From Minisyncoccia bacterium (GTDB taxonomy: Bacteria; Patescibacteriota; Minisyncoccia; Phycocordibacterales; CAJBRS01), in assembly GCA_038215155.1 (NCBI GenBank), contig JBBQRF010000004.1:1-54683 (forward strand): 54,683 nucleotides of DNA. Direction: 5' to 3'. The notes under the pieces were generated by a model. That model saw only the letters and a program-made list of their open reading frames with translations, was not told where the DNA came from and made no database searches. Below, in pieces: positions 2 through 50,111 of this stretch. The translations under genes and the position numbers were made by a program. How positions within the stretch are numbered: the first letter of the stretch is position 1; every line of letters starts with the position of its first letter.

Positions 2-3000
2 AGCCTCCTTAGCTCACTAGGAGATCTCATCTCCTCTTTCTTCGACCTCTTCAGGAAACCTACTCCTCCTACTCCGGTCATTAAAATCACTCAACCAACT
101 TCTCCACCACCGCTCCCAAGAACTACCTACAGCACTACCACCATCATTAATAATTATTCTTCGCAAGGCTCAGGACCTGCGGCCACCATCATTCGGAACA
201 CTACGATAGTGAACGGAGTAACCGAGACCCTGCTCAACCAGAAACTAAAAGCTCTAAACGACAAATTAGAAGCAGAGATTTATACCGCAGAAAACACCGA
301 GCCTTTTACTAACTCCACTACTACTCCAATAGTTAATCAATACATTACCTACACCTCAACTGGAGGAGGAGGCGGTGATTACTCTGGAAGTCTAAACTCG
401 CTCGGAGGAAGAATTGGGACAATTGAATCCGGGCAATTCTCAAACAATTTAAATGTCCAAGCAAGTGGTACAAGTACCATTAGTGACAATCTCTATGTTG
501 GAAACAACGCCACCATTGGCAACAACCTAACCGTTAACGGCAACTTCTTTGTTAAAGGCACTACTACCACTACCAACACTCAAGTAGCAACTAATGGGAT
601 CTTTACTAATCTAACTACCACCAATCTTCAAGCTACCAATGCTACTACTACTAACCTTCAAGTCACTGGTATCGGCACCTCTACATTTATGGGTAATATC
701 CTTGCGAACAACATTACGGCAAACAAATTTGTCGGTGATGGATCTGCTTTAACCGGAGTTGCTGCAGCGAATATTAATTCACTGAATCCGATAGTTGTAG
801 GGTTTCAGAACTCTGCAACAGGAACGAATGCCAGTGCAGTGGGGTATATGAATAGCGCGGGGGGAAATAACAGTTCATCTATAGGATTTTGTAACACTGC
901 TAGCGCCTCTAGAAGTACAGCTTCAGGCTATAACAATACTGCTTCTGGACAATTTAGTTCCGCTTTTGGTTACAGATCTAGTGCCACAGGAGCAAACAGT
1001 TTTGTTGGTGGATACAGTAGCACCGCTTCAGGATTTCAGTCGGCTGCGTTGGGCCGAAACTCCTTAGCAAGTGGTGATGAAAGTCTGGCTTTTGGCGGAG
1101 GAAATATATCCAACATTGCTTCCAGTTGCCAAAGTATGGCTTTTGGTCGTTCAAATTTGTCGAGCGGATATACATCATTGGCGATTGGCGGATATAACAC
1201 TGCAAGTGGAGATACTAGCAGTGCCTCCGGCTATCGAAACACCGCCTCGGGCACTTCATCCAGCGCTTTTGGGTTTTGTAATTTTAGTAGCGGCGTAGGA
1301 AGTACAGCATCTGGTTATAAAAATAATTCAAATTCTAATTTAGCAATATCAATAGGAGCTCTGAATAATTATTGCGGCTATGTAGTGGATGCTACTGGAA
1401 ATGTCTCCGTGGGTGGATATGGTTTAGTAACCTGTGTCGCAGGTCCTGCCTCAACCGCAATTGGAATTCAAAATCGGGCGACGGGAATTAAATCCACAGC
1501 CTCAGGATATTTCAATCTTTCAAGCGGATGCAGTTCTGGTGCTTTTGGCTATGGAAATACTGCCAGTGGGTACTGCGCCCAAGCATTCGGATATTCTAAT
1601 ACTGCGGCAGGGACCAGCTCTTCTGCAATTGGCCAATTTAATAATGCGACGGCATGCAAATCTACAGCCTTCGGACTTTCCAATTCAGTTACTGGAGCAG
1701 GAAGTACTGCATCAGGGATTTATAATCAGGTAGCAGGATGCGGGTCTTCTGGTATTGGAATGAGGAATATTGTGAATGGTGATTGTGTATCGGGGGTAGG
1801 ACTCTGCAACCAAGCCTTCGGCAGCTTTAGTTTCGCCGTAGGAGGATATAACCAAGCTTCTGGAAATTCTACAAATTCTTTTGGAAAAGGAAATATTGCT
1901 TGCGGAAACAACATCTCGTCCTTCGGTATTTCAAATAACGCTTCAGGCACTTCATCGAACGCTTTTGGTTTTTGTAATTGCGCCAGTGGACTGTGCAGTT
2001 CCGTATTTGGGGTATTAAACACGGGAAGTGACTGTTTTGCCTCCGCCTTAGGATATCAAAACACGGCTTCTGGTAAAGGATCTACTGCTTCAGGTTATAT
2101 AAACACATCTAGTGCTTACAATTCTTCAACATATGGAGTACAAAATACTGCGAGTGGCATGTATGCCACTGCCGTGGGAATACAAAATATTGCTTCTTCC
2201 ACAAAAGCAACCGCGATTGGAGTAGCCAATATTGTTTCTGGATCAGAAGGAACCGCGATTGGAGGGTTTAATAAAGCAGCTGGATGTATATCAATCGCTT
2301 TGGGTTATAATAATTCGGCCACTTCTACTGCTGATACTGCTATTGGTTTTCTTAATTGTGCAAGTGGAGGTCAATCCATTGCCTTGGGAGGATTTAATAA
2401 AGCAAGAGGATGCGCCGCATCAGCTATTGGTTATTTCAGTCAGGCAAATGGATATTCGAGCACTGCCGTGGGAAATTTTGCTCAAGGAATCGGCTCCAGT
2501 ACTTCAGCCTTTGGCTCTTATTCATGTGCCGTAGGGGCTAATAGTACGGCCTCGGGATTTTATACCGTGACAGGAGGACAAAATAGTTCAGCGTTTGGAT
2601 ATAAGAACACGGCCTCGGGAACTTCTTCCAGTGCGTTAGGATTTTGTAACACAACAAATGGCTCTAATTCCTTAAGTTTCGGACAATGTAATACCTCTAG
2701 CGGGTATAAAGCTTCTGCTTTTGGTAGAGAAAATAATTCATTAGGAACGGGAACATCAATTGGAGGATACGGTAATACTGCATCCTCCAGTTCAAGTTTT
2801 TCCTCGGCTTTTGGATATGCTAATAACGTCGATAAATTCAGAAGCTCAGCTTTTGGTTCTTTTAACACCGCCTCCGGCTATAATAGCTCGGCCTTTGGAA
2901 GTAATAACACTGCTTCAGGATGCTATTCTTCAGCTCTAGGCATTCAAAATACCTCTTCAGCCTGTCGTTCATCTGCTTTCGGCTTTAGTAACACCGCCTC

Positions 3001-4669
3001 CGCTTGTCTTTCTTCCGCTTCAGGAAACTGCAACACCGCCTCCGGCACTTCCTCCAATGCTTTTGGGTATTTCAATAATGTTTCAGGAATAAAAAGTAAT
3101 GCCATCGGATATGTAAATACCGTATCTTCAGTAGGCGGATATGGTCTAGGTATAGGTGCTTTTAACACTGTATCGGGTGATTATGCTTTAGGTACAGGTT
3201 TTGCAAATAGCGCTGTATCTTCCAACTCATCTGCTTTTGGATACAGGAACACCGCTTCCGCCACCTCATCAAGTGCGATTGGATTCTGTAACACGGGAAG
3301 TGGCTGTTTTGCCTCCGCCCTCGGATATCAAAACACCGCCTCCGGAAAAAGTTCTAGCGCTTCAGGTTATTTAAATACCTCTTCTGGGATTTACTCCGCC
3401 GCCCTCGGATATCAAAACACTGCGAGCGCTCTGCGCTCGTCAGCTCTAGGATTCTCAAACTTTGCCACATCAACCTGTAGTAGCGCTATCGGATTTAAGA
3501 ACACTGCTGGGGGACTTTGCTCCACTGCAATTGGATACTGTAATCTAGCAACGGGAAACCTCGCTGTAGCTCTTGGAACCCTCTCAGGATACGGTACTAA
3601 TATTAGAAATACGGCGTCTGGTTATGGATCCGTTGCAGTGGGAGCTGGTAACACTGGATCTGGAAGATATGCAACTGCAGTAGGGAGAGAAAACACCGCT
3701 AGCGCCTGTCTTGCCTCAGCCTTCGGATCTTGTTTAACGAACGCCAACTCTTGCTCTACTCGAATTGGCTACCTAAATGGTTGGCTTACAGTTAATGCTA
3801 ATGGTTCAGCTACATCATCTACTGGCGCCACACTTTCTGCCGGCGGCGTCTGGACCAACGCCTCCGACCGCAACCTAAAGGAGAACTTCACTGATCTCAA
3901 TCAGGATGAAGTCCTAGGAAAGATCAATGATCTGAACATTCAACAATGGAACTACAAAGCAGAGAACAGCGAAGTCACTCACATAGGTCCAGTAGCCCAA
4001 GACTTCTACGAAAAGTTCCACGTAGGAGGTTCCGACAAGACTATCTCTTCCATTGATCCTGCAGGAGTAGCACTCATTGGTATTCAAGCTCTCTCAAAGA
4101 AAGTAAACTCCCAAAGTGCCTCTACCACTGAAGCATTCTCTAAACTTGAGATCAGAGTTTCTTCTATTGAATCTCTGAAGAATATTTCTACCGGAGGCGT
4201 CTCCGTAGGAGACGCCATTCTCGGCGCCCTCCAATCCTTCGGCGCCGAGGTAGTTGATGGCATTGCCTATTTGAAGAATGTCTTTGTGGAGAGATTGACG
4301 GTGGGTTCACCAACTCATCCAACTGGTATTACTGTATACGATCAAAGTGGCAAGGAAGGATGTTTAATAGTGCTTGATGTGAATACGGGAACTACTAAAG
4401 TAATTCCCGGCAAATGCCAAGATGCTACTTCTACTCCCATAGCGACCATTACTACTGGAGGAGGAAACACGGTGACTATTGTAAACACTGCGGCCACTAC
4501 TTCTGATTCAGTGGCTACTTCTACTAAAGATATCTCTCCACCGAATCCTACTCCGCCAACAGATTCACCTACCTCTGATATTCCAACGCCACCTAATTCA
4601 GATAGTTCTGGCACTGGAGATGCCTCTGCGCCTGCCTCGATTCCTTCTGATAATTCCAGCGGCACTTAA
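2..4669 (+). CDS. Giant surface fibre/adhesin, 5'-partial. YadA-head/Hep_Hag-like repeats, then a Peptidase_S74-type intramolecular chaperone domain, then an S/T/P-rich tail.
   Basis: The frame is open from nt 2, with no stop before the tracker's GTG at 209, so the CDS runs off the window edge. There are dozens of degenerate S-x-A-x-G-Y-x-N-T-A-S-G repeats. WTNASDRNLKENF...IGPVAQDFYEKF...GVALIGIQAL matches the endosialidase/tail-fibre chaperone signature. A GITVYDQSGKEGCLIV module and a proline/serine-rich tail follow. Confidence 0.8.
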   Translation, partial: SLLSSLGDLISSFFDLFRKPTPPTPVIKITQPTSPPPLPRTTYSTTTIINNYSSQGSGPAATIIRNTTIVNGVTETLLNQKLKALNDKLEAEIYTAENTEPFTNSTTTPIVNQYITYTSTGGGGGDYSGSLNSLGGRIGTIESGQFSNNLNVQASGTSTISDNLYVGNNATIGNNLTVNGNFFVKGTTTTTNTQVATNGIFTNLTTTNLQATNATTTNLQVTGIGTSTFMGNILANNITANKFVGDGSALTGVAAANINSLNPIVVGFQNSATGTNASAVGYMNSAGGNNSSSIGFCNTASASRSTASGYNNTASGQFSSAFGYRSSATGANSFVGGYSSTASGFQSAALGRNSLASGDESLAFGGGNISNIASSCQSMAFGRSNLSSGYTSLAIGGYNTASGDTSSASGYRNTASGTSSSAFGFCNFSSGVGSTASGYKNNSNSNLAISIGALNNYCGYVVDATGNVSVGGYGLVTCVAGPASTAIGIQNRATGIKSTASGYFNLSSGCSSGAFGYGNTASGYCAQAFGYSNTAAGTSSSAIGQFNNATACKSTAFGLSNSVTGAGSTASGIYNQVAGCGSSGIGMRNIVNGDCVSGVGLCNQAFGSFSFAVGGYNQASGNSTNSFGKGNIACGNNISSFGISNNASGTSSNAFGFCNCASGLCSSVFGVLNTGSDCFASALGYQNTASGKGSTASGYINTSSAYNSSTYGVQNTASGMYATAVGIQNIASSTKATAIGVANIVSGSEGTAIGGFNKAAGCISIALGYNNSATSTADTAIGFLNCASGGQSIALGGFNKARGCAASAIGYFSQANGYSSTAVGNFAQGIGSSTSAFGSYSCAVGANSTASGFYTVTGGQNSSAFGYKNTASGTSSSALGFCNTTNGSNSLSFGQCNTSSGYKASAFGRENNSLGTGTSIGGYGNTASSSSSFSSAFGYANNVDKFRSSAFGSFNTASGYNSSAFGSNNTASGCYSSALGIQNTSSACRSSAFGFSNTASACLSSASGNCNTASGTSSNAFGYFNNVSGIKSNAIGYVNTVSSVGGYGLGIGAFNTVSGDYALGTGFANSAVSSNSSAFGYRNTASATSSSAIGFCNTGSGCFASALGYQNTASGKSSSASGYLNTSSGIYSAALGYQNTASALRSSALGFSNFATSTCSSAIGFKNTAGGLCSTAIGYCNLATGNLAVALGTLSGYGTNIRNTASGYGSVAVGAGNTGSGRYATAVGRENTASACLASAFGSCLTNANSCSTRIGYLNGWLTVNANGSATSSTGATLSAGGVWTNASDRNLKENFTDLNQDEVLGKINDLNIQQWNYKAENSEVTHIGPVAQDFYEKFHVGGSDKTISSIDPAGVALIGIQALSKKVNSQSASTTEAFSKLEIRVSSIESLKNISTGGVSVGDAILGALQSFGAEVVDGIAYLKNVFVERLTVGSPTHPTGITVYDQSGKEGCLIVLDVNTGTTKVIPGKCQDATSTPIATITTGGGNTVTIVNTAATTSDSVATSTKDISPPNPTPPTDSPTSDIPTPPNSDSSGTGDASAPASIPSDNSSGT

Positions 4670-4690
4670 AAGTTGAGCTTCTAAATTTGA

Positions 4691-4727
4691 GGCCGGCGGG
4701 GGCGAGCCGCCCCCGCCGGCCTTTTCT
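4691..4727 (+). terminator. Rho-independent terminator
   Basis: A 12-bp GC stem, ggccggcggggg/cccccgccggcc, is followed by ttttct. Confidence 0.85.
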
Positions 4728-4741
4728 GTTATCATTTAAAG

Positions 4742-5878
4742 ATGGCGCGCAAACGTATTCAAATAATTGTACCCGACAAGATTAAAAATCCAGTGGGAGG
4801 TCTAGGCGTGCAACTTAAACACATGGTGGAAAATCTTGAGAAGGATTTTGATTTTGATATTATCGGTCAACCAGAAGAAAATGGCTGGCCAAACTACACC
4901 AGTGTATATAATCCCATGCCCGCTCTTCAGCACGGCGCCCTTACCACCATCGCTGGTCAAATTGCTTATTTTGCTGCGGGAGTGGAGAAATCTAAACCCG
5001 ATGTGGTTCATGCTTACGATTGGTCCACCTACCTTGCCGGCGCCTACGTTGCCGAGCATTTCAAAGTACCTTTATTAGTTACCATGCAGCTTTCGATTAA
5101 TCTTTTGGAAAAAGTCGGCATTACCTACGCACACAATGCAGAAACAATTGATGGTGCCTGGATTCATAAGACTCATTGCGAAATTGAACTGTATGGCTTA
5201 AGACATGCCGCAAAAATTGTCCATGTCTCGGAAGCTTACCGGAATCAATTTAAAGGAGTAGAAAATTTTGATCAAAAATCGACCGTGGTGCCAAATGGAA
5301 TTGAATTAAGCGAATGGAGCCAATTTGCACCAATGAAATTCCCAGGGAAAAATCCAATTAAATTAATTTATATTGGACGCTTTGCTCTAATGAAAGGAGT
5401 GCTTGCCCTTTGCGCCGCTAAAGTGCCAGATGGAATTGATCTTATCTTTATTGGTGCAGACAATGGCGGAGAAGCGCAGGTCTTTCAAAAGATGCTGGAA
5501 AAGGTCAATCAAGAGTCAAATGTGCACTATATCGGGCCTCTATACGGTCAAGATAAAATAAATGCTATGTGCTCAGCCGATGCCGTCATTATGCCTTCCA
5601 TTCATGAGCCTTTTGGAATTGTTGCTCTGGAGGCCTTGGCTTCAAAATCTATTTTACTTTCTTCATTTATGGATGGGATGAGTGATTTTCTGACCGAAGA
5701 TGTGGCAATTAATTGCGGCACTACTCCTCCATTTATAGAGCGAGCAATGATTGATTTAATTTCTCTAACGCCCGAAGGTAAGGAGAAGCGAATTCAAAAA
5801 GGACTGGAAGTTTGCCGCCGCTATTCTTGGCAAACGGCGGCTGATCAAATGAGAAAGATTTATCAAAATTTAGTCTAG
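4742..5878 (+). CDS. Glycosyltransferase, GT-B fold, family 4-like
   Basis: HEPFGIVALEALASKS (E-x7-E motif) and overall GT4/glycogen-synthase-like layout. Confidence 0.75.
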   Translation: MARKRIQIIVPDKIKNPVGGLGVQLKHMVENLEKDFDFDIIGQPEENGWPNYTSVYNPMPALQHGALTTIAGQIAYFAAGVEKSKPDVVHAYDWSTYLAGAYVAEHFKVPLLVTMQLSINLLEKVGITYAHNAETIDGAWIHKTHCEIELYGLRHAAKIVHVSEAYRNQFKGVENFDQKSTVVPNGIELSEWSQFAPMKFPGKNPIKLIYIGRFALMKGVLALCAAKVPDGIDLIFIGADNGGEAQVFQKMLEKVNQESNVHYIGPLYGQDKINAMCSADAVIMPSIHEPFGIVALEALASKSILLSSFMDGMSDFLTEDVAINCGTTPPFIERAMIDLISLTPEGKEKRIQKGLEVCRRYSWQTAADQMRKIYQNLV

Positions 5879-6763
5879 GAGGGTTTTCATTATTTCCTCT
5901 ACATCGAAAATTTGGTCAGTGTCGTATGGATGTTCCGCCAAGGTGCCCCAGATATTGTATTTATCTAAATAGGCATCTGGATTGTGGCGGAATTTTTCTT
6001 CTAAAGCGGGCAAAATATTATGGTGCATGGGGTAGCCAAAAACTTTAGGAGAATTAACTATCCAGACCACGGTAGACGAAAGGGCGAGGGCCGCCGCAGC
6101 ATGCTGCGGCGCAGAATCAATCAGCAATCTCTTATTAGAGAATTGGAGAGCACAAAGGAATTCCCTGAGAGTCTCAAATGGAGGGCGAATAGCTCCCTCT
6201 AAGCCATACTGATTTTCACGACGAATATGGAGCACTTCATAACCCTCCGATTTCATTCTATTAACGATTTCCTGAGCCGTGCCTAGTGGTAAATCCCTGG
6301 CCCAAGAAATAGGATAGGACTGATTAATATAGCCTCCACTAGTTTGAATAATGAAGACAGGTTTATCATTGATATTCAATTTAGATTTAACTCTTTCTCG
6401 TTCTTCATCGGTAAAGAATAACTCTGGCATTTCTCCATCATATTTTACGCCGCAGAGCTCACACCATATTTCAATTAGGTGCTTACGGCGAAAGATGAAA
6501 TCCTCGGCTTGGTAAGGATCTTGTAGAAAGAGAAGATTCTTTCCATCTTTTAAGTAGGTTTCTCGAAAGTCTGGAGTTTTCTCAAGGTCTATTACTTTTG
6601 TAACGTGGGGATTATTTGACCAAGCCTCTTTATGAGGTGAGCTGATCAGTATTTCGTGATCTGGATATTTTGCGGCGAGAAGTCGAACCACGGCACTGGC
6701 AGTGATGTTCTTGCCGACTCCACCAGCAATATTAAATATTAATTTCGGTTTTAATTTGCTCAT
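5870..6763 (-). CDS. Heptosyltransferase (GT9)-like glycosyltransferase, paralog 1
   Basis: N-terminal IAGGVGKNI...YPDHEILI and C-terminal LLIDSAPQHAAAALALSSTVVW resemble GT9 motifs. It shares FI(F/Y)RRKHLI(E/D)IWCEL with the neighbouring gene. Confidence 0.5.
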   Translation of the reverse strand: MSKLKPKLIFNIAGGVGKNITASAVVRLLAAKYPDHEILISSPHKEAWSNNPHVTKVIDLEKTPDFRETYLKDGKNLLFLQDPYQAEDFIFRRKHLIEIWCELCGVKYDGEMPELFFTDEERERVKSKLNINDKPVFIIQTSGGYINQSYPISWARDLPLGTAQEIVNRMKSEGYEVLHIRRENQYGLEGAIRPPFETLREFLCALQFSNKRLLIDSAPQHAAAALALSSTVVWIVNSPKVFGYPMHHNILPALEEKFRHNPDAYLDKYNIWGTLAEHPYDTDQIFDVEEIMKTLLD

Positions 6764-7554
6764 GGCAGTAAATTTTGAATAATGTCTGCGGCGCTAGTAG
6801 AGGGTAGATGTTCAAGTGTGCTGTAGCCCCACGCAGTCCAATCTTCTGGAGCGGAGATTATGGTAGCCGCGGCGCCTTGCGCCGCGGCAGCTTGCATTGC
6901 AAAAGAGTTTAAAAATAAATTTTCGGCTGATAAATTCAGAACGCACATCATTTGGCGCAGCGGCAAATTGAGCCATTCAATACCACCAAGCGGCTCTTCA
7001 TCAGCCCTTTTTAGATGGATAGGATGAAAGCCTTCTTTTTGCATCGCTGTCACTACGGCCATCACCGTGGCAAAGGGAAGGGTGGAGATTTTAGGAGCAA
7101 AACCCCAAGCGTCAAAAGGGGGTTGGTTTATCAGTGCGCGGGTTTCAAAAAGGAACAAGGGCTTTCCTCTATTAGTCATTTTTCCTGTTGCTTCGATTTC
7201 TCTAGCAGTAAAGAAAAGTTCTGGCTTTTTAATCTCAGCCGTCACATTAGATAGTTCGCACCAAATATCAATTAAGTGCTTTCGTCGATAAATAAAGTCC
7301 TCGGTCAAAAACGGATCAAGACGGAAGATTTCAGTATCTTTTTTATCCACGAAGTCATCAAAAAAATATTGAGTGTTACCAAGTTTGTAGACTCGGTAGA
7401 CGGCAGGATTGTGAAGCCATACTTCGGGAAAGAGGGTAGTCACTATAATTTTTCGTTCAGGATGAGATTTAGCCAGATTGGCTACCACAGCAGTAGCCAC
7501 TAAATCCTTGCTTGGATCACCCACCACTTCAAAAATTAGGTATTTTTCTGACAT
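6760..7554 (-). CDS. Heptosyltransferase (GT9)-like glycosyltransferase, paralog 2
   Basis: Clear paralog of 5870-6763 (FIYRRKHLIDIWCEL, ELFFT). A 4-nt overlap with paralog 1 suggests co-translation. Confidence 0.5.
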   Translation of the reverse strand: MSEKYLIFEVVGDPSKDLVATAVVANLAKSHPERKIIVTTLFPEVWLHNPAVYRVYKLGNTQYFFDDFVDKKDTEIFRLDPFLTEDFIYRRKHLIDIWCELSNVTAEIKKPELFFTAREIEATGKMTNRGKPLFLFETRALINQPPFDAWGFAPKISTLPFATVMAVVTAMQKEGFHPIHLKRADEEPLGGIEWLNLPLRQMMCVLNLSAENLFLNSFAMQAAAAQGAAATIISAPEDWTAWGYSTLEHLPSTSAADIIQNLLP

Positions 7555-7590
7555 TTTTTAATTATATCCTGCATGGGGTATAATTTCATT

Positions 7591-8661
7591 ATGAAAACTA
7601 TACGAGTAGCCATTAATGGAGCAGGCAGAATTGGCAGAGCTTTTTATAAAGTAGCTTCTAAACGACCAGAAATTGAGATAGTTGCGCTCAATGATCTTGG
7701 TGATATAGAGAACATTGCTTATCTTTTAAAATACGACAGTGTCTATGGCCGTAGTGGTTTGAATATTGAGATAAAGAAGAACTTAGAGGTTGAGCTTCTA
7801 AGTGAAGATTCAGCACTTAGAAGCTCAACCTCTAAGTTGGTAATACAGGGAAAGGAAGTGAAATTTCTCAGTCAGAAAGATCCAGCACAACTACCATGGA
7901 AAGATTTAGATATTGATGTGGTGGTGGAGTCAACCGGTTTTTTCACTAGCTTTGAAAAATCAAAAGCCCACTTAGATGCCGGCGCTAAAAGAGTAGTAAT
8001 CAGTGCGCCGGTGAAAGAAGATGCCTCAGCCGGCGCGCCGACAGTATTAATGGGAATAAATGAAGAAGCTCTGAAAAATTCTAAAGTTAGCTCAAATGCT
8101 TCCTGCACTACTAATTCAGCAAGTCCACTCTTGGCTATTTTAGATGAAGCAATTGGTATTGAAAAAGCTATTCTTACTACTGTTCACGGATATACTGCCA
8201 GCCAGTCAATTGTTGATGGTCCAAATAAGAAGGATTGGAAGGAGGGCAGAGCAGCGGCTCAGAATATTGTACCGACTTCCACTGGCTCGGCCATCGCTAC
8301 CGCTAAGGCACTCACTCAATTTGAAGGGAAGTTTGACGGCATTTCCATGCGCGTGCCAGTACCAGCCGGATCTATTGCCGACATTACCTTTATTGCTAAG
8401 CGCCCAACCACAGTAGAAGAAGTTAATTCGGCCCTAGAAAAAGCGGCCAATGATCCACGTTGGCAAAAAGTTTTTGCGGTGATTAAGGATCAAATTGTAT
8501 CTAGCGATATTCTCGGGGACTCCCATGCCGCCATTGCCGATCTGGGATTGACTCGAGTAGTGGATGGTAACTTAGTGAAAGTGCTGTCTTGGTATGACAA
8601 TGAAATGGGATACACCCATTCATTAGTAGAACATGTAATTGAAGCGGGTAAGTATTTATGA
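7591..8661 (+). CDS. gap: Glyceraldehyde-3-phosphate dehydrogenase, type I
   Basis: INGAGRIGR, SNASCTTNS and WYDNEMGY motifs. The start is placed at MKTIRV (7591) by alignment to the family N-terminus; the tracker start at 7573 lies in the promoter. Confidence 0.93.
   Translation: MKTIRVAINGAGRIGRAFYKVASKRPEIEIVALNDLGDIENIAYLLKYDSVYGRSGLNIEIKKNLEVELLSEDSALRSSTSKLVIQGKEVKFLSQKDPAQLPWKDLDIDVVVESTGFFTSFEKSKAHLDAGAKRVVISAPVKEDASAGAPTVLMGINEEALKNSKVSSNASCTTNSASPLLAILDEAIGIEKAILTTVHGYTASQSIVDGPNKKDWKEGRAAAQNIVPTSTGSAIATAKALTQFEGKFDGISMRVPVPAGSIADITFIAKRPTTVEEVNSALEKAANDPRWQKVFAVIKDQIVSSDILGDSHAAIADLGLTRVVDGNLVKVLSWYDNEMGYTHSLVEHVIEAGKYL
7780..7838. repeat. Perfect 25-bp inverted repeat with a 9-nt loop, inside the gap CDS
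   Basis: aacttagaggttgagcttctaagtg-aagattcag-cacttagaagctcaacctctaagtt. It encodes the extra peptide LEVELLSEDSALRSSTSK. Confidence 0.9.
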
Positions 8662-9135: not shown

Positions 9136-9807
9136 ATGGAAATTATTCCGGCCATCATGCCCGAAAATTATGAAGACTTGCGGGAGAAGTTATCGCAAGT
9201 TAGCCATTCTGTGAAAACTGTTCAGATTGACGTGATGGATGGCCGATTCGTCTCATCACGAAGCTGGCCGTATAATCGGCAGCCCGATCCGGATTTTGAA
9301 AAGGTTTTGCATGAAGAAGAAGGGCTGCCGTTTTGGGAGCGACTAAATTTTGAAATAGATTTAATGGTAGATAATCCGAGTAGAGAAGCTAGTAAATGGA
9401 TTTTGGCTGGAGCGACTCGATTGGCGATTCATTTAGAAAGTCAGAAAGAAAATTTAAAGGTAGCTTTGGAAGAAATTAAAAATGGGGGAGTGGAGGTGGG
9501 CCTTGCCATGGATATGAAAACTCCAGTCGAAGAGCTATGGCCGTTTTTAGACTGCGTAGACTTTGTACAATTAATGGGTATTAAAAATATTGGATATCAA
9601 GGCGAGCCTTTTGATGGGGAGGTGGTTGGGCGAATCAAGAGTGTAAAAGAGAGGTCGCCGTCGACGATTGTCAGCGTCGACGGCGGCGTTAGCCTGGAGA
9701 CTGCGCCCGCCATTTTGGCGGCGGGCGCCGAGCGTCTTGTCATTGGATCAGCTATTTTTGATAGCGCAGATGTCGAAGGGGCTATCCATGACTTTCAATC
9801 CCTTTAG
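9136..9807 (+). CDS. rpe: Ribulose-phosphate 3-epimerase
   Basis: VQIDVMDGRFV and SVDGGV motifs. Confidence 0.88.
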   Translation: MEIIPAIMPENYEDLREKLSQVSHSVKTVQIDVMDGRFVSSRSWPYNRQPDPDFEKVLHEEEGLPFWERLNFEIDLMVDNPSREASKWILAGATRLAIHLESQKENLKVALEEIKNGGVEVGLAMDMKTPVEELWPFLDCVDFVQLMGIKNIGYQGEPFDGEVVGRIKSVKERSPSTIVSVDGGVSLETAPAILAAGAERLVIGSAIFDSADVEGAIHDFQSL

Positions 9808-11012: not shown

Positions 11013-11991
11013 TTTAAACCCCAAAATTTTTGCAAAGGATAATAGCGATATTGAGCAAGCGCCAATCCGTAAGGGTTTCGGTGAAGGACTACTTGATGCG
11101 GGTGAGCAGGATGAAAATGTCGTGGGTCTTTGCGCTGATCTGACGGAATCCACACAAATGCACTTATTTAAAGAAAAATTTCCTCATCGCTTTGTGGAAA
11201 TTGGAGTGGCTGAACAAAACTTAGCAACGGTAGCGGCCGGCATGGCCGCCATGGGAAAAGTTCCATTTCTTTCTTCTTATGCCATGTTTAGTCCTGGCCG
11301 AAATTGGGAGCAAATCCGAACTACTATTTGTTACAACAACGCTAATGTAAAGATTGTTGGATCGCATGCGGGAGTCTCTGTAGGGCCTGATGGCGGCAGC
11401 CATCAGGCCCTGGAAGATCTGGCCATTATTCGGGTTTTGCCTCGAATGACCATCATCTCTCCTTGCGATGCAATCGAGGCGCGAAAGGCCACCATTGCAG
11501 CGGCCAAGATGAAAGGCCCGGTTTACCTGCGTCTTGCCCGCGAGAAAACTCCCATCATCACTACTGAAGAAACCGCTTTTGAAATTGGTAAAGCGCAAAT
11601 TTTTTATCAGCCAAAGACTAAAGCCCAGGTAGGAATTATCGCTACGGGAGCACTAGTCTACCAAGCAATTCAAGCGGCCAAGCAATTAGATGATCAGGGC
11701 TTCCCCGCTAAAGTCTTGAACATCTCCACTATTAAACCTCTGGACGAAGAAGCAGTTATCAATTTAGCTAAAGAAAGTGGCGCCATCATTACAGTAGAGG
11801 AGCATCAAATTACCGGCGGTCTTGGTGGGGCAGTTGCAGAATGCTTGGCTAAAAATTACCCAGTACCAATGGAATTTATAGGAGTGAAAGATAAATTCGG
11901 CCAATCAGGAAAACCCTCAGAACTTATCAAACACTACGGTATGGATGCCGAGTCTATTATAGAAGCCGCTCAGCGACTTAGAAATAAGTAA
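11005..11991 (+). CDS. tkt: Transketolase, C-terminal (pyrimidine-binding) subunit
   Basis: FVEIGVAEQNL and GPDGGSHQALEDLA motifs. The ATG at 11005 overlaps the upstream stop (atgaataa). Confidence 0.9.
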   Translation: MNNLNPKIFAKDNSDIEQAPIRKGFGEGLLDAGEQDENVVGLCADLTESTQMHLFKEKFPHRFVEIGVAEQNLATVAAGMAAMGKVPFLSSYAMFSPGRNWEQIRTTICYNNANVKIVGSHAGVSVGPDGGSHQALEDLAIIRVLPRMTIISPCDAIEARKATIAAAKMKGPVYLRLAREKTPIITTEETAFEIGKAQIFYQPKTKAQVGIIATGALVYQAIQAAKQLDDQGFPAKVLNISTIKPLDEEAVINLAKESGAIITVEEHQITGGLGGAVAECLAKNYPVPMEFIGVKDKFGQSGKPSELIKHYGMDAESIIEAAQRLRNK

Positions 11992-19482: not shown

Positions 19483-19743
19483 ATGAAAAAGGACATTCAC
19501 CCCGCATATTTTCCAAAAGCCACCATTACCTGTGCCTGCGGCAAGATCTACACCCTCGGCTCTACTAAGGAGAAAATGGAGGTGGAAATTTGTGCTGCCT
19601 GCCATCCACTTTATACAGGCAATGAAAAGGTTCTCGACTCGGCTGGCCGAGTAGAAAGATTCAAAGCTCGACAGTCTGGCTCCAAAAAAGTTACTTCAAA
19701 GAAAGTTGCCACTAAAGCTAAGAGTTCAGAAGATAAGAAATAA
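19483..19743 (+). CDS. rpmE: Ribosomal protein L31 (Cys-containing type) with K-rich tail
   Basis: MKKDIHP...CACG...CAACHPLYTG. Confidence 0.9.
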   Translation: MKKDIHPAYFPKATITCACGKIYTLGSTKEKMEVEICAACHPLYTGNEKVLDSAGRVERFKARQSGSKKVTSKKVATKAKSSEDKK

Positions 19744-19750
19744 ATACTCT

Positions 19751-19794
19751 ATAGACACCGCGGCTGCCATTTAAATGGCAGCCGCGGTGTCTAT
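19751..19794. repeat. Perfect 44-nt palindrome between rpmE and prfA (hairpin without U-tract)
   Basis: atagacaccgcggctgccattt|aaatggcagccgcggtgtctat. All 22 pairs are Watson-Crick. It is followed by ctatctac, then the prfA ATG. Confidence 0.9.
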
Positions 19795-19802
19795 CTATCT
19801 AC

Positions 19803-20756
19803 ATGGAAAAAGAAAAATTGGCAGAGCTGAAAAAAAATCATAAAACCAGTTTTCTAGCGGGAGAATTGGAGCGTCTCATTCAAGAAGAAGAGGAAATGAA
19901 AAAAATGGCGGATACTAATAAAGAGATGGCGGAAATGGCTCAAGAGGAATTAAAAGATTTAGAAATCCAAAAAATATCCATTGAAGAGCAGATTGCAAGC
20001 ATCTTGAAAGTAGAAGAATCCGAAGAACAATTTCCGAATGAAGTCATTTTGGAAGTTCGAGCAGGCGCCGGGGGAGAGGAAGCCGCACTTTTTGCTGAGG
20101 AACTTTCCATTATGTATCAGAAATACGCTACTGCTCTCGGTTGGCCTACCAGAAAAATAAATGAATCTCCTTCTGCTCTTGGTGGCTACAAAGAGGTCTC
20201 AATAGAAATTAAAGGCCAGGATGTTTATCGAAAGTTACGTTTTGAGACGGGCGTTCATAGGATCCAGCGAGTTCCTAAGACTGAGAAAATGGGACGAGTT
20301 CACACTTCTACGGCTTCTGTAGCTATTCTTCCTATTCGTAAAAAAACTAACATGGTTATTAATCCCACAGATATTGAAATGGAGTTTTCTCGATCCGGCG
20401 GTGCTGGTGGTCAAAACGTTAATAAAGTGGAGACGGCTGTAAGGCTGATTCATAAGCCGACCGGTATTGACGTGCGCTCGACTCAAGAAAGAAGTCAATT
20501 GAAAAATCGCGAAAAGGCCATGAGTATTCTCGTTGCCAAACTGGAGCAATTAAAAGAAGAAGAGGAATTCAAGAAATTTGCCAAAGAGCGTTCCGATCAA
20601 ATCGGAACTGCCGATCGCTCGGAAAAAATCCGCACCTACAACATTCTTCAAGACCGCGTAACGGATCATCGTATCAAGGAATCCTGGCACAACATTGAGA
20701 AGATCTTTGCGGGGGAGTTAGGGCCCATCATTTCAACTTTACAAGAAAAGGCTTAA
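19803..20756 (+). CDS. prfA: Peptide chain release factor 1 (short form)
   Basis: [14 protein letters not shown] and RVPKTE (PxT-type tripeptide region). 317 aa. Confidence 0.88.
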
Positions 20757-25343: not shown

Positions 25344-27346
25344 TGTTAATTTCTTATAAAACTCTTCAGAAATTTTTCGATGAACCGTTGCCCGAGGCAG
25401 AGACCTTGTCAGAACTATTGACGCATCATGCTTTTGAAGTGGAGAAGGTTACTCCAATAGGGGATGATTTTATTTTCGATATTAAGGTATTGCCGGATAG
25501 GGCCCACTATGCCTTGTCACATCGTGGGGTTTCTTATGAGGTAGCGGCCATTTTAGGACTGAAGAGAAATGGAGAGGCGCGGGCGAAGCCTGCGCAAGCA
25601 GACGCGGAAAATTCCAGCCTCGGAAATTTGAAGATTCAAATTTCCGAGGCTGATCTGTGCGCGCGTTACATGATTCGCGAAATTAAAAACGTCACAGTCA
25701 CGGACTCACCTGCATGGCTTCAAGAATTTTTAAAATCAATTGATCAGCGATCGATTAATAACATTGTTGACGCCCTTAATTACATTATGTTTTATGTGGG
25801 CCAACCCCTGCATGCCTTTGATGCGGATAAGGTGGAAGGAGAGCTAGAGATTCGACTAGCCAAGGCAGGGGAGAGAATTACCCTTCTGGACGATAAAGAA
25901 ATAGTTTTGAATGAAAATGCGCTAGTCATTGCTGATAAAGTCGGACCGCTAGCAATTGCGGGAATTAAAGGTGGTAAGCGGGCTGAAGTAAATGCTCACA
26001 CAAAAAATATTCTCATTGAAGCCGCTAGCTTTCAGGCATCAAATGTACGTAAAACCTCCACTGAACTTAATTTACGTAACGAATCTTCCAAACGTTTTGA
26101 AAATGCAATCACTCCAGAACTTGCAGTTATTGGGTTGGAGAAAGTTACCAGTGAGATTTTAATATTGTCGCCTGGTGCTGAAGTGGCAGAGACGATTGAT
26201 ATTTATCCAAATAAGGCTCCTCAAGAAAAAATTTCTATCAACCCCAAAGAAATTAATGACACTCTTGGCATCACTATTCCCAGAGAAGAAATCATAAAAA
26301 TTTTAGAAAAATTAGAAATTCAAATAGAAGATCAGGAGGAAAAACTCTTAATGACTATTCCTTACGAGCGCTTGGATTTAAAATCAGCCATTGATATACC
26401 CGAAGAGGTGGGACGGCTCTATGGTTTCTCAAAAATTCCATCAGAAGCATTGTCTAAAGTAGCAGAGTCAAAAAACCTAAATAAAAATTTCTATTATCAA
26501 AATAGCATTAGAAAAATTTTAGGCCAGGCTGGCTTTTCGGAGATTTATACTCCAAGCATTGTGAATAAAGGAGAAATAGAAATAATTAATCCTCTAGCTT
26601 CTGATAAGAAATCTGCCCGTAGTAATTTAACAGACAATCTAGTAAAAAGCCTCCAACTGAATTTACACAATATTGAGCTTCTTGGTTTAGAGGAAATAAA
26701 AATTTTTGAAATGGGTAAAGTATTTACCAAGAACGGAGAATTCACTTCGCTAGCAATCGGCGTGGCTCATCCTGCTGGATTCAAAGGGGAGTCAGTCAAT
26801 GAGGAAATTAGAAAGGTCCGGGAGTATCTCCTCTCTCATCTCGATACTAAGATTATGACTCTTTGCACCACCGACGATACTGGGGGGCTATTAATGCTCG
26901 AGAAAGAGCATATTGGAGTCATTAATAAAGTTGATGGAATAATGGAACTGAACCTCGATAAGCTCATTGGTGATTTACCTTCACCGGATTTGGAATCTGA
27001 ACTCCTTAGTGACACGTTGGGGAATAGAACTTCACAATCTTATAGTTCTATTTCTATTTACCCTTTTGTGCTGCGTGATATCGCCGTTTTTGTAACTGGA
27101 GAGAAGGGACGAGAAGAGGAAGTGCTTGAAATTATTAAAAAAGAGGCGGGCGCGCTTTTAGTCCGCGCCCGCCTCTTCGATGTTTTTACTAAAATAAATA
27201 AAGAAACAGAAGAAACCAAAACTTCCTATGCCTACAGACTGGTTTTTCAATCAGCCGAGCGTACACTGACTGATGCCGAGATTAACAAGATTATGGATAA
27301 AATTACCACTGCTTTGAATGCTAAAGATCAGTGGTCAGTTCGCTAA
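25343..27346 (+). CDS. pheT: Phenylalanyl-tRNA synthetase beta subunit
   Basis: B3/4 and B5 domains and a C-terminal FDX-ACB region (LFDVF). ATG/TAA overlap with pheS. Confidence 0.9.
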   Translation: MLISYKTLQKFFDEPLPEAETLSELLTHHAFEVEKVTPIGDDFIFDIKVLPDRAHYALSHRGVSYEVAAILGLKRNGEARAKPAQADAENSSLGNLKIQISEADLCARYMIREIKNVTVTDSPAWLQEFLKSIDQRSINNIVDALNYIMFYVGQPLHAFDADKVEGELEIRLAKAGERITLLDDKEIVLNENALVIADKVGPLAIAGIKGGKRAEVNAHTKNILIEAASFQASNVRKTSTELNLRNESSKRFENAITPELAVIGLEKVTSEILILSPGAEVAETIDIYPNKAPQEKISINPKEINDTLGITIPREEIIKILEKLEIQIEDQEEKLLMTIPYERLDLKSAIDIPEEVGRLYGFSKIPSEALSKVAESKNLNKNFYYQNSIRKILGQAGFSEIYTPSIVNKGEIEIINPLASDKKSARSNLTDNLVKSLQLNLHNIELLGLEEIKIFEMGKVFTKNGEFTSLAIGVAHPAGFKGESVNEEIRKVREYLLSHLDTKIMTLCTTDDTGGLLMLEKEHIGVINKVDGIMELNLDKLIGDLPSPDLESELLSDTLGNRTSQSYSSISIYPFVLRDIAVFVTGEKGREEEVLEIIKKEAGALLVRARLFDVFTKINKETEETKTSYAYRLVFQSAERTLTDAEINKIMDKITTALNAKDQWSVR

Positions 27347-29948: not shown

Positions 29949-29977
29949 CAGCCCTATAGTTATAAATTAGACAAATT

Positions 29978-30014
29978 AAAACAGCCGGCGCGAGAATCTC
30001 GCGCCGGCTGTTTT
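29978..30014. terminator. Bidirectional terminator (gyrB / CARDB gene)
   Basis: aaaacagccggcgcgag-aat-ctcgcgccggctgtttt. A/T runs lie on both sides. Confidence 0.85.
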
Positions 30015-30020
30015 AATTAA

Positions 30021-39602: not shown

Positions 39603-39607
39603 TAAAA

Positions 39608-39650
39608 ACGAAAAAGGCCGGGCGCGAGAAACGCGCCCGGCCTTTTTCGT
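39608..39650. terminator. Bidirectional terminator (cassette 6 / thrS)
   Basis: acgaaaaaggccgggcgcg-agaaa-cgcgcccggcctttttcgt. Confidence 0.88.
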
Positions 39651-39653
39651 TGT

Positions 39654-46200: not shown

Positions 46201-46243
46201 TTAGTTAGGAATTAAGAGCTAACCCTCTAATTCTTATTTTAAA

Positions 46244-47149
46244 ATGGCTAACCGGCACCTTTCCAGATCAATAGCTCTGCAAGCCCTCTTCGAGTGGGAT
46301 TTTGCCAGTAAGGATGATTCACAAATTGATTCAATCTTAGACCGTATCACTCCAGAATTTGCTGCGGGGATGGGAGACATGAGTTTCGTCCGAGCACTGA
46401 CTGCTAATATTTTAAAAAAACGTCCAGACCTCGATAACATTATTACGAAAGCCGCTCCGGATTGGCCTCTTTCAAAAATCAGCCCCGTTGATCGCAACAT
46501 TCTGCGACTCGGTCTATTTGAATTACTTTTCGCTGATAGAAAAGAAGTACCAGCAAAAGTTGCTATAAACGAGGCCATTGAACTGGCTAAAACTTTTGGA
46601 GGAGACACTAGTGGAAAATTTGTTAACGGAGTACTCGGCGCTGTTTATAAAGAAATGGGTGAGCCAGGAAAAGACGAACAGTCCACAAAAAAACACAAAA
46701 ATTTTAAAAATATTCCGTACGAACAAATGCCCATTGAGACGCTCGGTGGCGCAGTAGTCTACGCCAAGGACCCTCAAGGAGAAATGTATTTAGCCCTAGT
46801 TCACGATGTCTTTGGCCACTGGACACTTTCCAAGGGGGGTCTTGAGGCAAACGAAGAGACAAAACAAGGGACAGAAAAACAAGTGGAGGAGGAAATTGGC
46901 ATTAAGGTTGAAGCCGAAGAAGAGCTAGCTAAAAATGAATACATCGCCACTCATCCTGAAAAAGGAAAAATTCGTAAACAAGTTATTTATTATCTAGCCA
47001 GCGCTTCGTATGAAGATCTTCATTTGAAAAAAAGTGGGGGACTGGACGACGCGCGATGGTTCCGTCTAAAAGATATTTTAGATTTAAATTTCTACAACGA
47101 CATCCTGCCCATCATCACCAAAGCAATTACTATTTTATTAAAGAAATAA
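46244..47149 (+). CDS. nusB: NusB antitermination factor fused to a C-terminal Nudix-fold domain
   Basis: N-terminal RSIALQALFEWDF...AINEAIELAKTFGG...KFVNGVLG (NusB). C-terminal GGLEANEETKQGTEKQVEEEIGI (Nudix-box-like). Confidence 0.8.
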   Translation: MANRHLSRSIALQALFEWDFASKDDSQIDSILDRITPEFAAGMGDMSFVRALTANILKKRPDLDNIITKAAPDWPLSKISPVDRNILRLGLFELLFADRKEVPAKVAINEAIELAKTFGGDTSGKFVNGVLGAVYKEMGEPGKDEQSTKKHKNFKNIPYEQMPIETLGGAVVYAKDPQGEMYLALVHDVFGHWTLSKGGLEANEETKQGTEKQVEEEIGIKVEAEEELAKNEYIATHPEKGKIRKQVIYYLASASYEDLHLKKSGGLDDARWFRLKDILDLNFYNDILPIITKAITILLKK

Positions 47150-47858: not shown

Positions 47859-50111
47859 ATGCATCTTAAATCTCTGGAGCTTTCTGGATTCAAATCTTTT
47901 GCCAAGAAGAGTACTCTTGAATTTAATACCTCAATCTCGGCTATTGTCGGCCCTAATGGGTCCGGAAAATCTAATATTGCCGAGGCCTTTCGTTTTGTCT
48001 TGGGAGAACAGTCCCTTAAATCCATGCGAGGCAAAAAAGGAGAAGACCTTATTTTTAACGGAGGTAAGGACTCTGCGCGCGCCAACAGAGCTAACGTTAA
48101 AGTTAATTTTGATAACAAGGATCGTAATTTGAACGTCGATTTCGACGAGGTAGCTATTGAGCGCATAGTTCATCGAGATGGAATCAATCAGTACTTAATC
48201 AATGGTTCGGAGGTGCGCCTTCGAGACATTATTGAGCTCTTAGCCGGAGCGCACATTGGAGCATCAGGTCATCATATTATTTCCCAAGGAGAAGCGGATA
48301 AAATTCTCAACGCTAATTTGCGCGAGCGCCGCGCCATGATTGAAGATGCCCTTGGTTTAAAGATCTATCAATACAAGAAAGAGGAAAGCGAAAGGAAGCT
48401 AGAAAAAACAGAGGAAAATATTAAATCAGTGGAATCATTACGACGGGAGATTGCGCCGCATTTGAAATTCTTGAAAAAACAGGTGGAAAAGTTGGAGAAG
48501 GCGCGAGAGATGAAAGAAGAATTAAAGGATCTTTATCGAGAATATTTTAAAAGAGAGGAGACTTATTTGAGTTTGGGAAAGGCAAATTTAGCCGGGGAGA
48601 GAAGCGCGCCGCAAGCGGAGCTTGCGGGGCTAGAAAAGGAGCTCCAAAACGCCAAGGGCATTTTGGAAAAGACCAAAGAAAAAGATTCTCGCGGAGAAGC
48701 AATTATTAACATGGAAGGAAAGTTAAAAATTGCTCGCATTGAGCGCGACATTCTTACCCGCGAAGCCGGCCGAATCGAAGGAGAAATTGCCTATTTGGAA
48801 AAAAGCATTAAAAAACAGAAAGAAAACCAAAACCAAGTAGAACAAAAAACTGTTTATTTAAATGAAGTTGAAAGTCTAAAATCGAAAGTCGAAAGCTTGA
48901 TAAAGGAAGCAGAAAGCTTAACAGAAGTTGGATCCATCCGAGGATTGCTTTCTAAAATTCGGGACATTTTCAGTAATTTCATTGAAAGCAATCGTGCTAA
49001 ACGGGAAGAAGCTAACGTCTCAGATTTAGAGGCTGAGCTTTCAAGTCTAAACAAGCAGCGCGAAGATTTAAATAAAAAGTTACAAAATCAAACCGCTGAA
49101 GAAGAAAAATTAAACCAAGAATATTTGCAATTAAAAGAAGAAGTAGAAAAAGGCAAGGATTCCAGTCTAGAAGCTGAACGGAAGATGCTGCAAATCATGG
49201 CGCGCCAGACGGAGCTACACGCCGGATTAAATATTTTAAAATCAACGGAAGAAAAAATAAATCTAGAAGAGGCAGATTTTAAAAGAGAGCTAGGAGAAGC
49301 AGGGGCGCTCCTTGGCCGAGAGGTTATTGATTACCAGACCTTCACTCTCCCCAATAATTCAGAAAGCCGTAATGAGCAATTAGAACGCCGGCGCTATATT
49401 GAGAAAATTAAGATTCGCCTAGAAGAAGCCGGGGCAGGTGGAGGAGAAGACATTCTGAAAGAGTATCAGGACGCCGAAGAGCGCGATGCTTTTTTAGGCA
49501 GGGAATTAGAAGACCTTGATAAATCTGCCATTTCCTTAAAAGAATTGATTACCGATCTTGAAGCTCGGCTCGACCATGAGTTTAAAGAAGGTGTTCATAA
49601 AATCAATGAGGCCTTCGGTAATTTTTTCGCTCTAATGTTTGGCGGCGGCCGCGCCTCTCTCGAAGTAGTGAGAGAGAAAGTCCGCGCCCGGCGTCGTGAT
49701 GAAGATTTGGATCTTGATCTAGAAGCTATGCCGCCCGAGGCAGACGAGCTCGGCGACGAGGGGATTGATATTAGCGTCTCCCTTCCTCACAAAAAAATTA
49801 AAGGTCTAGTAATGCTTTCCGGTGGCGAAAGAGCCCTTACTTCCATCGCTCTTCTTTTCGCCATCTCTCAAGTAAATCCACCTCCATTTATTATTCTAGA
49901 TGAAACAGACGCGGCACTCGACGAAGCAAATTCTCGCAAGTATGGCGATATGATTGAAAATCTTTCTAAATATTCACAACTGATCCTCATCACTCACAAT
50001 CGCGAAACTATGTCCCGCGCCGGCATAATCTATGGCGTCACCATGGGCGGCGACGGCCTCTCTAAACTTCTATCAATTCAATTTGAGCAAGCGGTTGAGG
50101 TAGCGAAATAA
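47859..50111 (+). CDS. smc: SMC-family ATPase, unusually short (750 aa)
   Basis: FKSF...GPNGSGKSN (Walker A), LSGGERALTSIALLFAI (signature) and ILDETDAALD (Walker B). Confidence 0.8.
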   Translation: MHLKSLELSGFKSFAKKSTLEFNTSISAIVGPNGSGKSNIAEAFRFVLGEQSLKSMRGKKGEDLIFNGGKDSARANRANVKVNFDNKDRNLNVDFDEVAIERIVHRDGINQYLINGSEVRLRDIIELLAGAHIGASGHHIISQGEADKILNANLRERRAMIEDALGLKIYQYKKEESERKLEKTEENIKSVESLRREIAPHLKFLKKQVEKLEKAREMKEELKDLYREYFKREETYLSLGKANLAGERSAPQAELAGLEKELQNAKGILEKTKEKDSRGEAIINMEGKLKIARIERDILTREAGRIEGEIAYLEKSIKKQKENQNQVEQKTVYLNEVESLKSKVESLIKEAESLTEVGSIRGLLSKIRDIFSNFIESNRAKREEANVSDLEAELSSLNKQREDLNKKLQNQTAEEEKLNQEYLQLKEEVEKGKDSSLEAERKMLQIMARQTELHAGLNILKSTEEKINLEEADFKRELGEAGALLGREVIDYQTFTLPNNSESRNEQLERRRYIEKIKIRLEEAGAGGGEDILKEYQDAEERDAFLGRELEDLDKSAISLKELITDLEARLDHEFKEGVHKINEAFGNFFALMFGGGRASLEVVREKVRARRRDEDLDLDLEAMPPEADELGDEGIDISVSLPHKKIKGLVMLSGGERALTSIALLFAISQVNPPPFIILDETDAALDEANSRKYGDMIENLSKYSQLILITHNRETMSRAGIIYGVTMGGDGLSKLLSIQFEQAVEVAK

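Follow-up and report, generated by a model that had tools for sequence, protein, structure and literature searches.

The window analysed here is a stretch of 54,683 nucleotides from a Minisyncoccia bacterium (contig JBBQRF010000004.1, forward strand) that carries gap, encoding a type I glyceraldehyde-3-phosphate dehydrogenase (GAPDH), on the forward strand at positions 7591-8661. The gene product matches Pfam Gp_dh_N with 110.7 bits and Gp_dh_C with 174.7 bits, and translation is likely to start at the ATG at 7591 (MKTIRV...), with a further ATG at 7573 also open upstream. Within the intact open reading frame (ORF), and in frame with it, lies a perfect palindrome of 59 nt at positions 7780-7838, without strand assignment, that reads AACTTAGAGGTTGAGCTTCTAAGTG / aagattcag / CACTTAGAAGCTCAACCTCTAAGTT, codes for residues N64-L83 and adds a net 15 residues to the enzyme. 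Its arms (7780-7804 and 7814-7838) are 25 nt each, 100% complementary and separated by a loop of 9 nt, as had been described in an earlier note made from the sequence alone, and the peptide given there for the palindrome, NLEVELLSEDSALRSSTSKL, was correct as written. That note had also called the chance expectation negligible, which agrees with our simulations: the arm, with up to three mismatches allowed, was expected 0.00 times in 100 shuffles of the window, and the longest perfect arm among 60 windows simulated under a first-order Markov model was 13 nt, compared with 25 nt in the real sequence. As single-stranded DNA the 59-mer has a predicted folding energy of -26.9 kcal/mol (z = -10.9).

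The palindrome has a nested, REPIN-like structure (a REPIN being a hairpin formed by two repetitive extragenic palindromic, or REP, sequences), and consists of two 23-nt units of the form ACTTAG-N11-CTAAGT in inverted orientation, separated by an 11-nt spacer. Unit 1 (7781-7803, + strand) is itself an imperfect palindrome, ACTTAGAGGTT-G-AGCTTCTAAGT, with the double foot ACTTAG...CTAAGT; eleven pairs can be drawn by eye, two of them G.T, and folding of the unit alone predicts nine pairs and -3.9 kcal/mol. Unit 2 (7815-7837, - strand) is its exact reverse complement and reads ACTTAGAAGCT-C-AACCTCTAAGT on the + strand, with A.C at the positions of the G.T pairs of unit 1. The outer G and C of the spacer GAAGATTCAGC (7804-7814, no strand) pair with each other, leaving its central 9 nt as the loop of the long hairpin. 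On either strand, the 23-nt unit can be read through in two of its three frames.

Misassembly is a classic problem at perfect palindromes, and the locus was inspected on contigs from three further samples (X1, X2 and X3). A 16-kb contig of the independent Logan assembly X1 spans the palindrome with 0 differences; a contig from a different study (X2) covers positions 7794-7846, which take in 11 nt of the left arm together with the loop and right arm, also with 0 differences; and a contig from a third sample (X3) extends 8 nt into the left arm. Although the Logan unitigs of X2 and X3 break inside the left arm, a foldback artefact is excluded for practical purposes because of the independent contigs and the uninterrupted gap homology and reading frame, and comparable inserts are present in other assemblies (L002 = L003, from JGI and Logan). 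We therefore take the palindrome to be genuine, and regard a foldback or chimeric join at this site, which the earlier note had wished to see checked, as scarcely credible.

Comparison with orthologues showed how much of the palindrome is additional sequence. In a survey of 165 gap genes, with the loop measured from YG to LPW, this loop is 30 amino acids long in 87 genes, 32 in 35 genes and 47 in the window. The net gain is 15 residues (45 nt), given that the loop has 47 residues here and 32 in the nearest relatives, and not the 18 residues previously proposed. At this place the window has IEIKKNLEVELLSEDSALRSSTSKLVIQGK, and the nearest orthologue, P0001 (88-93% identical to the window's gap; 93% with the loop left out), has IEIATDRLSLNIDGN. 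The insert is missing from L001/P0001, L084/P0002 and L085/P0004, and no CTAAG foot was found at the insert site in L001, L084 or L085. The longest perfect inverted-repeat arm in the loop DNA is 3-9 nt in 161 of the 165 genes, with outliers of 11 nt (L015), 17 nt (L002 = L003) and 25 nt (the window); the old, conserved long loops of L043, L136 and L057 are not palindromic. A look-up for a protein identical to the window's GAPDH returned no record, a protein search limited to the insert region gave no match for the insert peptide, and scans of genomes and metagenome contigs for closer relatives yielded only relatives at most 69% identical; no intermediate closer than the known orthologues was found from which the arms might be derived locally.

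An AlphaFold model of the protein (predicted local distance difference test, pLDDT, 82) resembles solved GAPDH structures with template-modelling scores of 0.82-0.90, and residues 66-78 have a pLDDT below 50 and lie between the predicted strands 59-62 and 82-85. The insert is thus predicted to occupy a disordered surface loop of an otherwise normal GAPDH fold, in line with the earlier expectation, for which modelling had been proposed as a check, that it would sit in a surface region of the NAD-binding domain.

In a tree built with the loop masked, the window is sister to the insert-free P0001, and P0006/L002, which carries a different palindrome in the same loop, is sister to the insert-free P0002; all four fall within one clade of eight with support of 100/99. 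Two independent gains are more parsimonious than one gain followed by at least four losses. The insert is lineage-specific, being absent from its 93%-identical sister P0001; the earlier note had proposed an alignment of orthologues to check this. We first thought that the foot ACTTAG...CTAAG might be native gap sequence, spanning a conserved Lys codon, that had been copied by template switching; this idea was rejected, since insert-free relatives lack CTAAG at that site and the inserts of the window and L002 are offset by one codon.

The window is not alone in carrying such an insert. In-frame hairpins were identified in four other gap genes among the 165, distributed across two surface loops. 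The hairpins of L002, in the same loop as that of the window, and of L135, in the second variable loop, are units of the same ACTTRG family: L002 carries 2.5 units of the same design, ACTTAGCGACC-A/T-GGTCGCYAAG, and L135 carries a single in-frame unit at 1884-1906. A different hairpin family is represented in L096, where a 47-nt perfect doublet (653-699; units GCGGAAGTC.GACTTCCGC) lies in frame in the second variable loop and encodes the peptide TAEVGLPLSGSPTSAV. The palindrome in the first loop of L015 (1084-1107) has arms of 11 nt, of which the right arm is native coding sequence. The author of the earlier note knew of no reason to expect an in-frame palindromic insertion in a genome of the candidate phyla radiation (CPR) type; the insertion itself stands, and its exceptional status does not, given these four other genes with comparable hairpins.

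A potential source of these hairpins was found next to gap in related genomes. A gene of the Y1_Tnp family, resembling REP-associated tyrosine transposases (RAYTs), lies directly upstream of gap at 16 of the 165 loci (tblastn), in diverse Paceibacteria, and also on the P0005 contig; gene tables for the P0004 and P0005 contigs likewise place a Pfam Y1_Tnp gene immediately upstream of gap. Examples are L029 1217-1885, L085 129-815 and L090 757-1425. Pfam Y1_Tnp scores of the gap-adjacent proteins are 30.6 and 37.6 bits against a cut-off of 23, and the NHFHL/NHYHL (HUH) and SAYI motifs are visible in the protein alignment, such that both the HUH motif and the catalytic tyrosine of Y1 enzymes are in place. 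Short perfect palindromes accompany the Y1 gene at 12 of the 16 loci, several of them flanking it on both sides with the same sequence, and in 8 of 13 aligned genes that hairpin also occurs in frame within the Y1 gene itself, where it occupies a homologous linker that immediately precedes the HUH motif. The sequence of the in-gene hairpin is lineage-specific and matches the external copies. Compared with the window's unit, the hairpin of L029 (AACTTAGTAGTT-G-AACTACTAAGTT) matches at 19 of 23 positions; the L018 hairpin is that of L029 with a compensatory inner pair, and that of L090 is ACTTGGAGGC-NNN-GCCTCCAAGT. Three copies are arranged around and inside the Y1 gene of L029, the layout of a REPtron, and three are also found in L090. 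A perfect palindrome of 50 nt lies between the RAYT gene and gap of L017; its arms measure 25 nt and it consists of two units that are each self-palindromic, which is the same nested architecture as that of the window's element.

Several other structures were observed at these loci. The space between the RAYT gene and gap in L143 holds a 53-nt palindrome with 26-nt arms (1396-1448), in which three CAAGGCGWCGCCTTG units follow one another head to tail with CTAG as the joining sequence. In L052 and L115 the stems of family units are extended by complementary flanks particular to each copy: 24 nt on each side give a 71-nt perfect palindrome in L052 (1851-1921), and the flanks in L115 (1398-1428) are CCCC and GGGG. 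Duplicates of the last 23-25 codons of gap (residues 332-356) lie 200-500 nt downstream of the intact gene in L009 (3508-3576) and L040 (3199-3273), and may be the footprint of something inserted at the end of the gene.

To place the gap units in relation to these hairpins, we used a covariance model (R1) constructed from five RAYT-associated units of L029, L018 and L090 only. In the window, the two gap units score highest: unit 1 is the best match, with 28 bits and an E-value of about 9e-5, and unit 2 reaches 28 bits on the - strand and 21.1 bits on the + strand. The next-best match (4664-4686) has 15.3 bits and all other perfect palindromes score lower. Outside the window, R1 matched a unit about 80 nt upstream of gap in L115 (32.8 bits), one downstream of gap in L052 (30.1 bits), the insert in gap of L002 (24.7 bits) and the single in-frame unit in the second variable loop of gap in L135 (24.1 bits). 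Most hairpins of other RAYT families did not reach the search's listing threshold (E of 1), and the highest-scoring one listed, that of L032, has 19.3 bits; an R1 search of the P0001 locus found no unit of the family. Unit 1 could be placed within the family alignment (A6). In an alignment of 14 units, 95% of the cells are paired and changes on both sides are seen in 6 of the 10 pairs, and the observed covariation score was reached in 0 of 500 shuffles; the double foot ACTTRG...CYAAGT is conserved, and the upper stem varies yet still pairs. By sequence and predicted structure, the gap units are thus assigned to a dispersed family of hairpin repeats; in related Paceibacteria, units of this family are found on either side of RAYT-like Y1 genes and within them. 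The frame CTT AGx ... xCT AAG is common to arm 2 of the window's palindrome, L029, L018 and one L002 unit; a single fixed frame for copies within genes was nevertheless rejected, as the other open frame is the one found in unit 1 of the window, and both frames are thus in use.

The three best local alignments to the gap element elsewhere in the window correspond to further candidate copies. The best, ACTTAAAAGTTGAGCTTCTAAAT at 4664-4686 (+ strand; 20/23 identical, R1 15.3 bits as above), is a degenerate single copy that overlaps the TAA stop codon (4667-4669) of a giant surface-fibre gene and is followed directly by a GC-rich terminator hairpin (4690-4722). A probable degenerate single copy, ATTTAGAGGCTGAGCTTTCAAGT at 49024-49046 (+ strand; 19/23 identical, R1 14.5 bits), lies within an SMC-family gene (47859-50111), in frame in the part that encodes the coiled coil; its peptide is DLEAELSS, read in the same frame as unit 1 in gap. 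An identity of at least 19/23 to the unit was never reached in 40 simulated windows. The third alignment, at 46210-46232 (- strand), in the spacer upstream of an ORF at 46244-47149, is weak (17/23, with 0.225 such matches expected) and is possibly a decayed copy. This brings the count for the window to four units, two of them perfect and two degenerate, with the doubtful match as a possible fifth. The idea that the insert duplicates the downstream strand KEVKFLSQKD was rejected: DNA identity in the window is only about 52%, and a 17/23 match in L104 is no more than chance would give, with about 2.7 expected at that threshold. As a separate observation, the giant ORF at 2-4669 contains YadA-head repeats and a Peptidase_S74 (endosialidase chaperone) domain, a domain content that points to a self-cleaving surface fibre.

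Perfect hairpins are abundant in the window as a whole. With arms of at least 10 nt and loops of at most 12 nt there are 21 perfect inverted repeats against about one expected, of which about 12 lie inside genes, and with arms of at least 12 nt there are 11 against 0.05 expected. A palindrome in pheT (25615-25652) has perfect 18-nt arms and encodes SSLGNLKIQISEA; we considered it as a second insertion and rejected this, as the segment is of near-normal length and keeps the x-L-x-I-x-V strand pattern in comparison with 40 orthologues, indicating that it was made in place. The window and L002 both have a perfect hairpin in the C-terminal part of tkt (11382-11411 in the window). L001 encodes the same GPDGGSHQAL motif there, but five synonymous differences disrupt the palindrome, so that codon choice co-varies between the two arms. 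The hairpin in rpe (9656-9685) is conserved in L002, and in L001 with 10-nt arms. A 10-mer, TGAAGATTCA, is shared by the gap spacer, the centre of the pheT palindrome and position 18274; the likeness does not extend beyond the 10-mer and was attributed to chance, as 2.7% of shuffles score equally and many segments of the window score higher.

Taken together, we consider that the palindrome is probably an intragenic inverted doublet of REP/REPIN type that entered a permissive surface loop of GAPDH with the reading frame preserved. Under this reading, a RAYT-like enzyme of the host genome, acting on folded single strands during replication, would have spread the units, and template switching during replication possibly helped to make or to perfect the doublet. 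The insertion would have taken place once this lineage and that of P0001 had separated, at the cost of about four native codons, and the copy in gap may have survived owing to the open frames of the unit (two of three on either strand) and to the tolerance of the loop for extra disordered residues. Mobilisation by a RAYT encoded in this genome, the sequence of events and the neutrality of the insert for the enzyme are all inferred. Several points weigh against an origin of this kind. No Y1 gene lies within the 54.7-kb window, the Y1 proteins of the relatives had no match in the PDB (phmmer, E of at most 1), and their sole NCBIfam match, REP_Tyr_transpos, scores 26-31 bits against a cut-off of 80. 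Model R1 is built from five sequences and its E-values are rough, the foot differs from the GTAG or CGTC tag of classical REPs, and copy number is low: in the whole X1 metagenome a single contig matched the 75-nt element at a threshold of 80%. Elsewhere in the window the copies are degenerate singlets, one of which could reflect coiled-coil codon bias. The net insert of 45 nt is also shorter than the doublet of 57 nt, from which it follows that about four native codons were lost or that the ancestral loop was shorter; alternatively, the stem was in part copied from native DNA, which is what a template-switch origin predicts. Finally, the genome makes perfect hairpins in place anyway, as the pheT and tkt examples and the 21 repeats illustrate.

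The last of these points leads to the main rival explanation, namely that the palindrome arose purely locally, by a template switch producing a quasipalindrome or inverted duplication, with its arms kept perfect in the same way and without a transposase, and that its likeness to RAYT-associated hairpins is a coincidence. The excess of perfect repeats, more than half of them inside genes, the in-place origin of the pheT palindrome, the tkt hairpin, perfect in the window and L002 and broken in L001, the 59-nt length of the palindrome compared with the 45-nt net insert, the native right arm in L015 and the documented creation of new perfect stems by insertion (PMC8794818) are all consistent with it. 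It leaves unexplained, however, the 28-bit match to a model that was derived from other genomes' hairpins, the presence of copies with 20/23 and 19/23 identity at other sites in the window, the recurrence of the same 23-nt double-foot design in the independent L002 insert and the RAYT association; in addition, the CTAAG foot is absent at the site in all insert-free relatives, and the insert has no significant similarity to neighbouring gap DNA (about 52% over 27 nt). We therefore judge a purely local origin to be rather unlikely, while noting that template switching could have built the doublet from a single unit or keep its arms identical, and that the two readings overlap to this extent. A selected, functional hairpin, for example a site of pausing or processing in the gap-rpiB-rpe-tkt operon or a cruciform bound by protein, and thus neither selfish nor neutral, would fit the contrast between perfect arms here and decayed singlets elsewhere, the recurrence of hairpins in the gap loops of several lineages and the conservation in L002 of other intragenic hairpins of the genome. 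This appears improbable, as the insert is missing from the closest relative and from most of the 165 gap genes, its sequence and position vary between lineages, and no Rfam-type or regulatory context was found for it; the sequencing runs found are all of DNA.

The interpretation as an intragenic REPIN-type doublet can be compared with several known systems. REPINs and single-copy RAYTs were described by Bertels & Rainey 2011 (PMC3116915, PMC3337134), and REP elements with their Y1 transposases (RAYT or TnpA_REP) are also treated in Ton-Hoang 2012 (PMC3333891). As in those systems, the unit is a short imperfect palindrome, its 23 nt falling within the 20-40 nt of REPs; an inverted pair with a short spacer folds into a near-perfect long hairpin, as a REPIN does; and lineage-specific hairpins flank a single Y1 HUH gene, here in relatives. 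The layout of those genes, with flanking and internal hairpins and double feet, is that of the published REPtron; double-foot REPs and REPs inside tnpA_REP have been reported for subclass 2.4, and atypical and double-foot REPs lacking GT[AG]G for some Y1 subclasses (Quentin 2018, PMC6006769). In contrast to classical REPs, the unit bears no terminal GTAG or CGTC tag and no GT[AG]G foot, having the foot ACTTRG and its complement CYAAGT at the other end, and it is not extragenic: the doublet lies within gap and the copy at 49024-49046 within the SMC-family gene. The 23-nt unit, the 11-nt spacer, the small number of copies and the scores of the relatives' Y1 proteins below the NCBIfam RAYT cut-off are further differences.

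The closest precedent for the intragenic position is the work of Di Nocera et al. 2013 (PMC3733652), who described REP singles and dimers inserted in frame in housekeeping genes and encoding 20-30 amino acids, and who classed the Rickettsia palindromic elements RPE-4 and RPE-6 as CGTC-type REPs. Those elements share with the present one the in-frame position of singles or dimers in housekeeping genes; they differ in tag and lineage, and here two loops of one enzyme have been struck repeatedly and the transposase gene often adjoins the target gene. PMC10969869, summarising Ogata et al. 2000 and 2002, describes elements of RPE-1 type as palindromic repeats of about 100-150 bp that lie in frame in conserved genes at sites compatible with the fold, and the window's element likewise lies in a conserved gene at a structurally tolerated site. 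On that same description RPEs have a conserved peptide and tens of copies, and are thereby set apart from a 59-nt element of 23-nt units in Patescibacteria; RPE-1 is not known to have a transposase link. We regard the element as unrelated to RPEs in sequence, although no sequence comparison with them was made. The Rickettsia palindromic element was the analogy offered in the earlier note, and as an analogy it seems essentially right: it holds for in-frame palindromic insertion, the more so with RPE-4 and RPE-6 being CGTC-type REPs, and it fails for the architecture, which is a doublet of 23-nt REP-like units and not an RPE-sized element. Template-switch (quasipalindrome) mutations, known from the Ripley model and more recent work (Monttinen & Loytynoja 2022, PMC8794818; PMC5941160), resemble the element in its perfect arms and nested symmetry and in the genome-wide excess of perfect hairpins, including those made in place in genes, but the process is not sequence-specific and predicts no conserved foot, no unlinked copies and no Y1 association.

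In-frame REP dimers having been described in 2013, knowledge of this kind of selfish DNA is unchanged, and what is added is an instance in a little-studied lineage; in the literature library that was searched, no paper ties RAYT or REPIN elements to Patescibacteria. Particular to the present case are the ACTTRG foot, the synteny of RAYT genes with gap and the repeated use of the same GAPDH loops. A concrete origin can be offered for the many perfect hairpins in essential genes of ultra-small CPR bacteria, as REP-type repeats tied to RAYT-like single-strand DNA transposases, and for genome annotation such palindromes in metagenome-assembled genomes are to be taken as real and not as assembly errors. 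GAPDH can be viewed as a natural insertion-scanning experiment in which two loops accept 5-20 extra residues in independent lineages. More tentatively, Paceibacteria might possess a large clade of domesticated RAYT-like Y1 enzymes near gap, each with a private double-foot hairpin at one fixed coding position, whose hairpins hop mainly to nearby sites, with the enzyme or template switching keeping them perfect; we hold this to be doubtful at present. If true, the two GAPDH loops would be recurrent landing pads in independent lineages, and the hairpins would reflect an active, locally acting system that writes hairpins into genes, beyond occasional junk.

Some further features of the window were noted. 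Immediately upstream of gap, two adjacent paralogous genes on the - strand (5870-6763 and 6760-7554) share the motif FI(Y/F)RRKHLI(D/E)IWCEL; they belong to no credible Pfam family and are conserved in L001, and the RAYT gene occupies this position in other relatives. Several GC-rich hairpins of the window have GGCGCG/CGCGCC cores in common in an otherwise AT-rich genome. Two hairpins, at 29974-30018 and 39607-39651, resemble bidirectional terminators between convergent genes, and a 44-nt perfect palindrome without a loop (19751-19794) occupies the spacer between the ORFs at 19483-19743 and 19803-20756.

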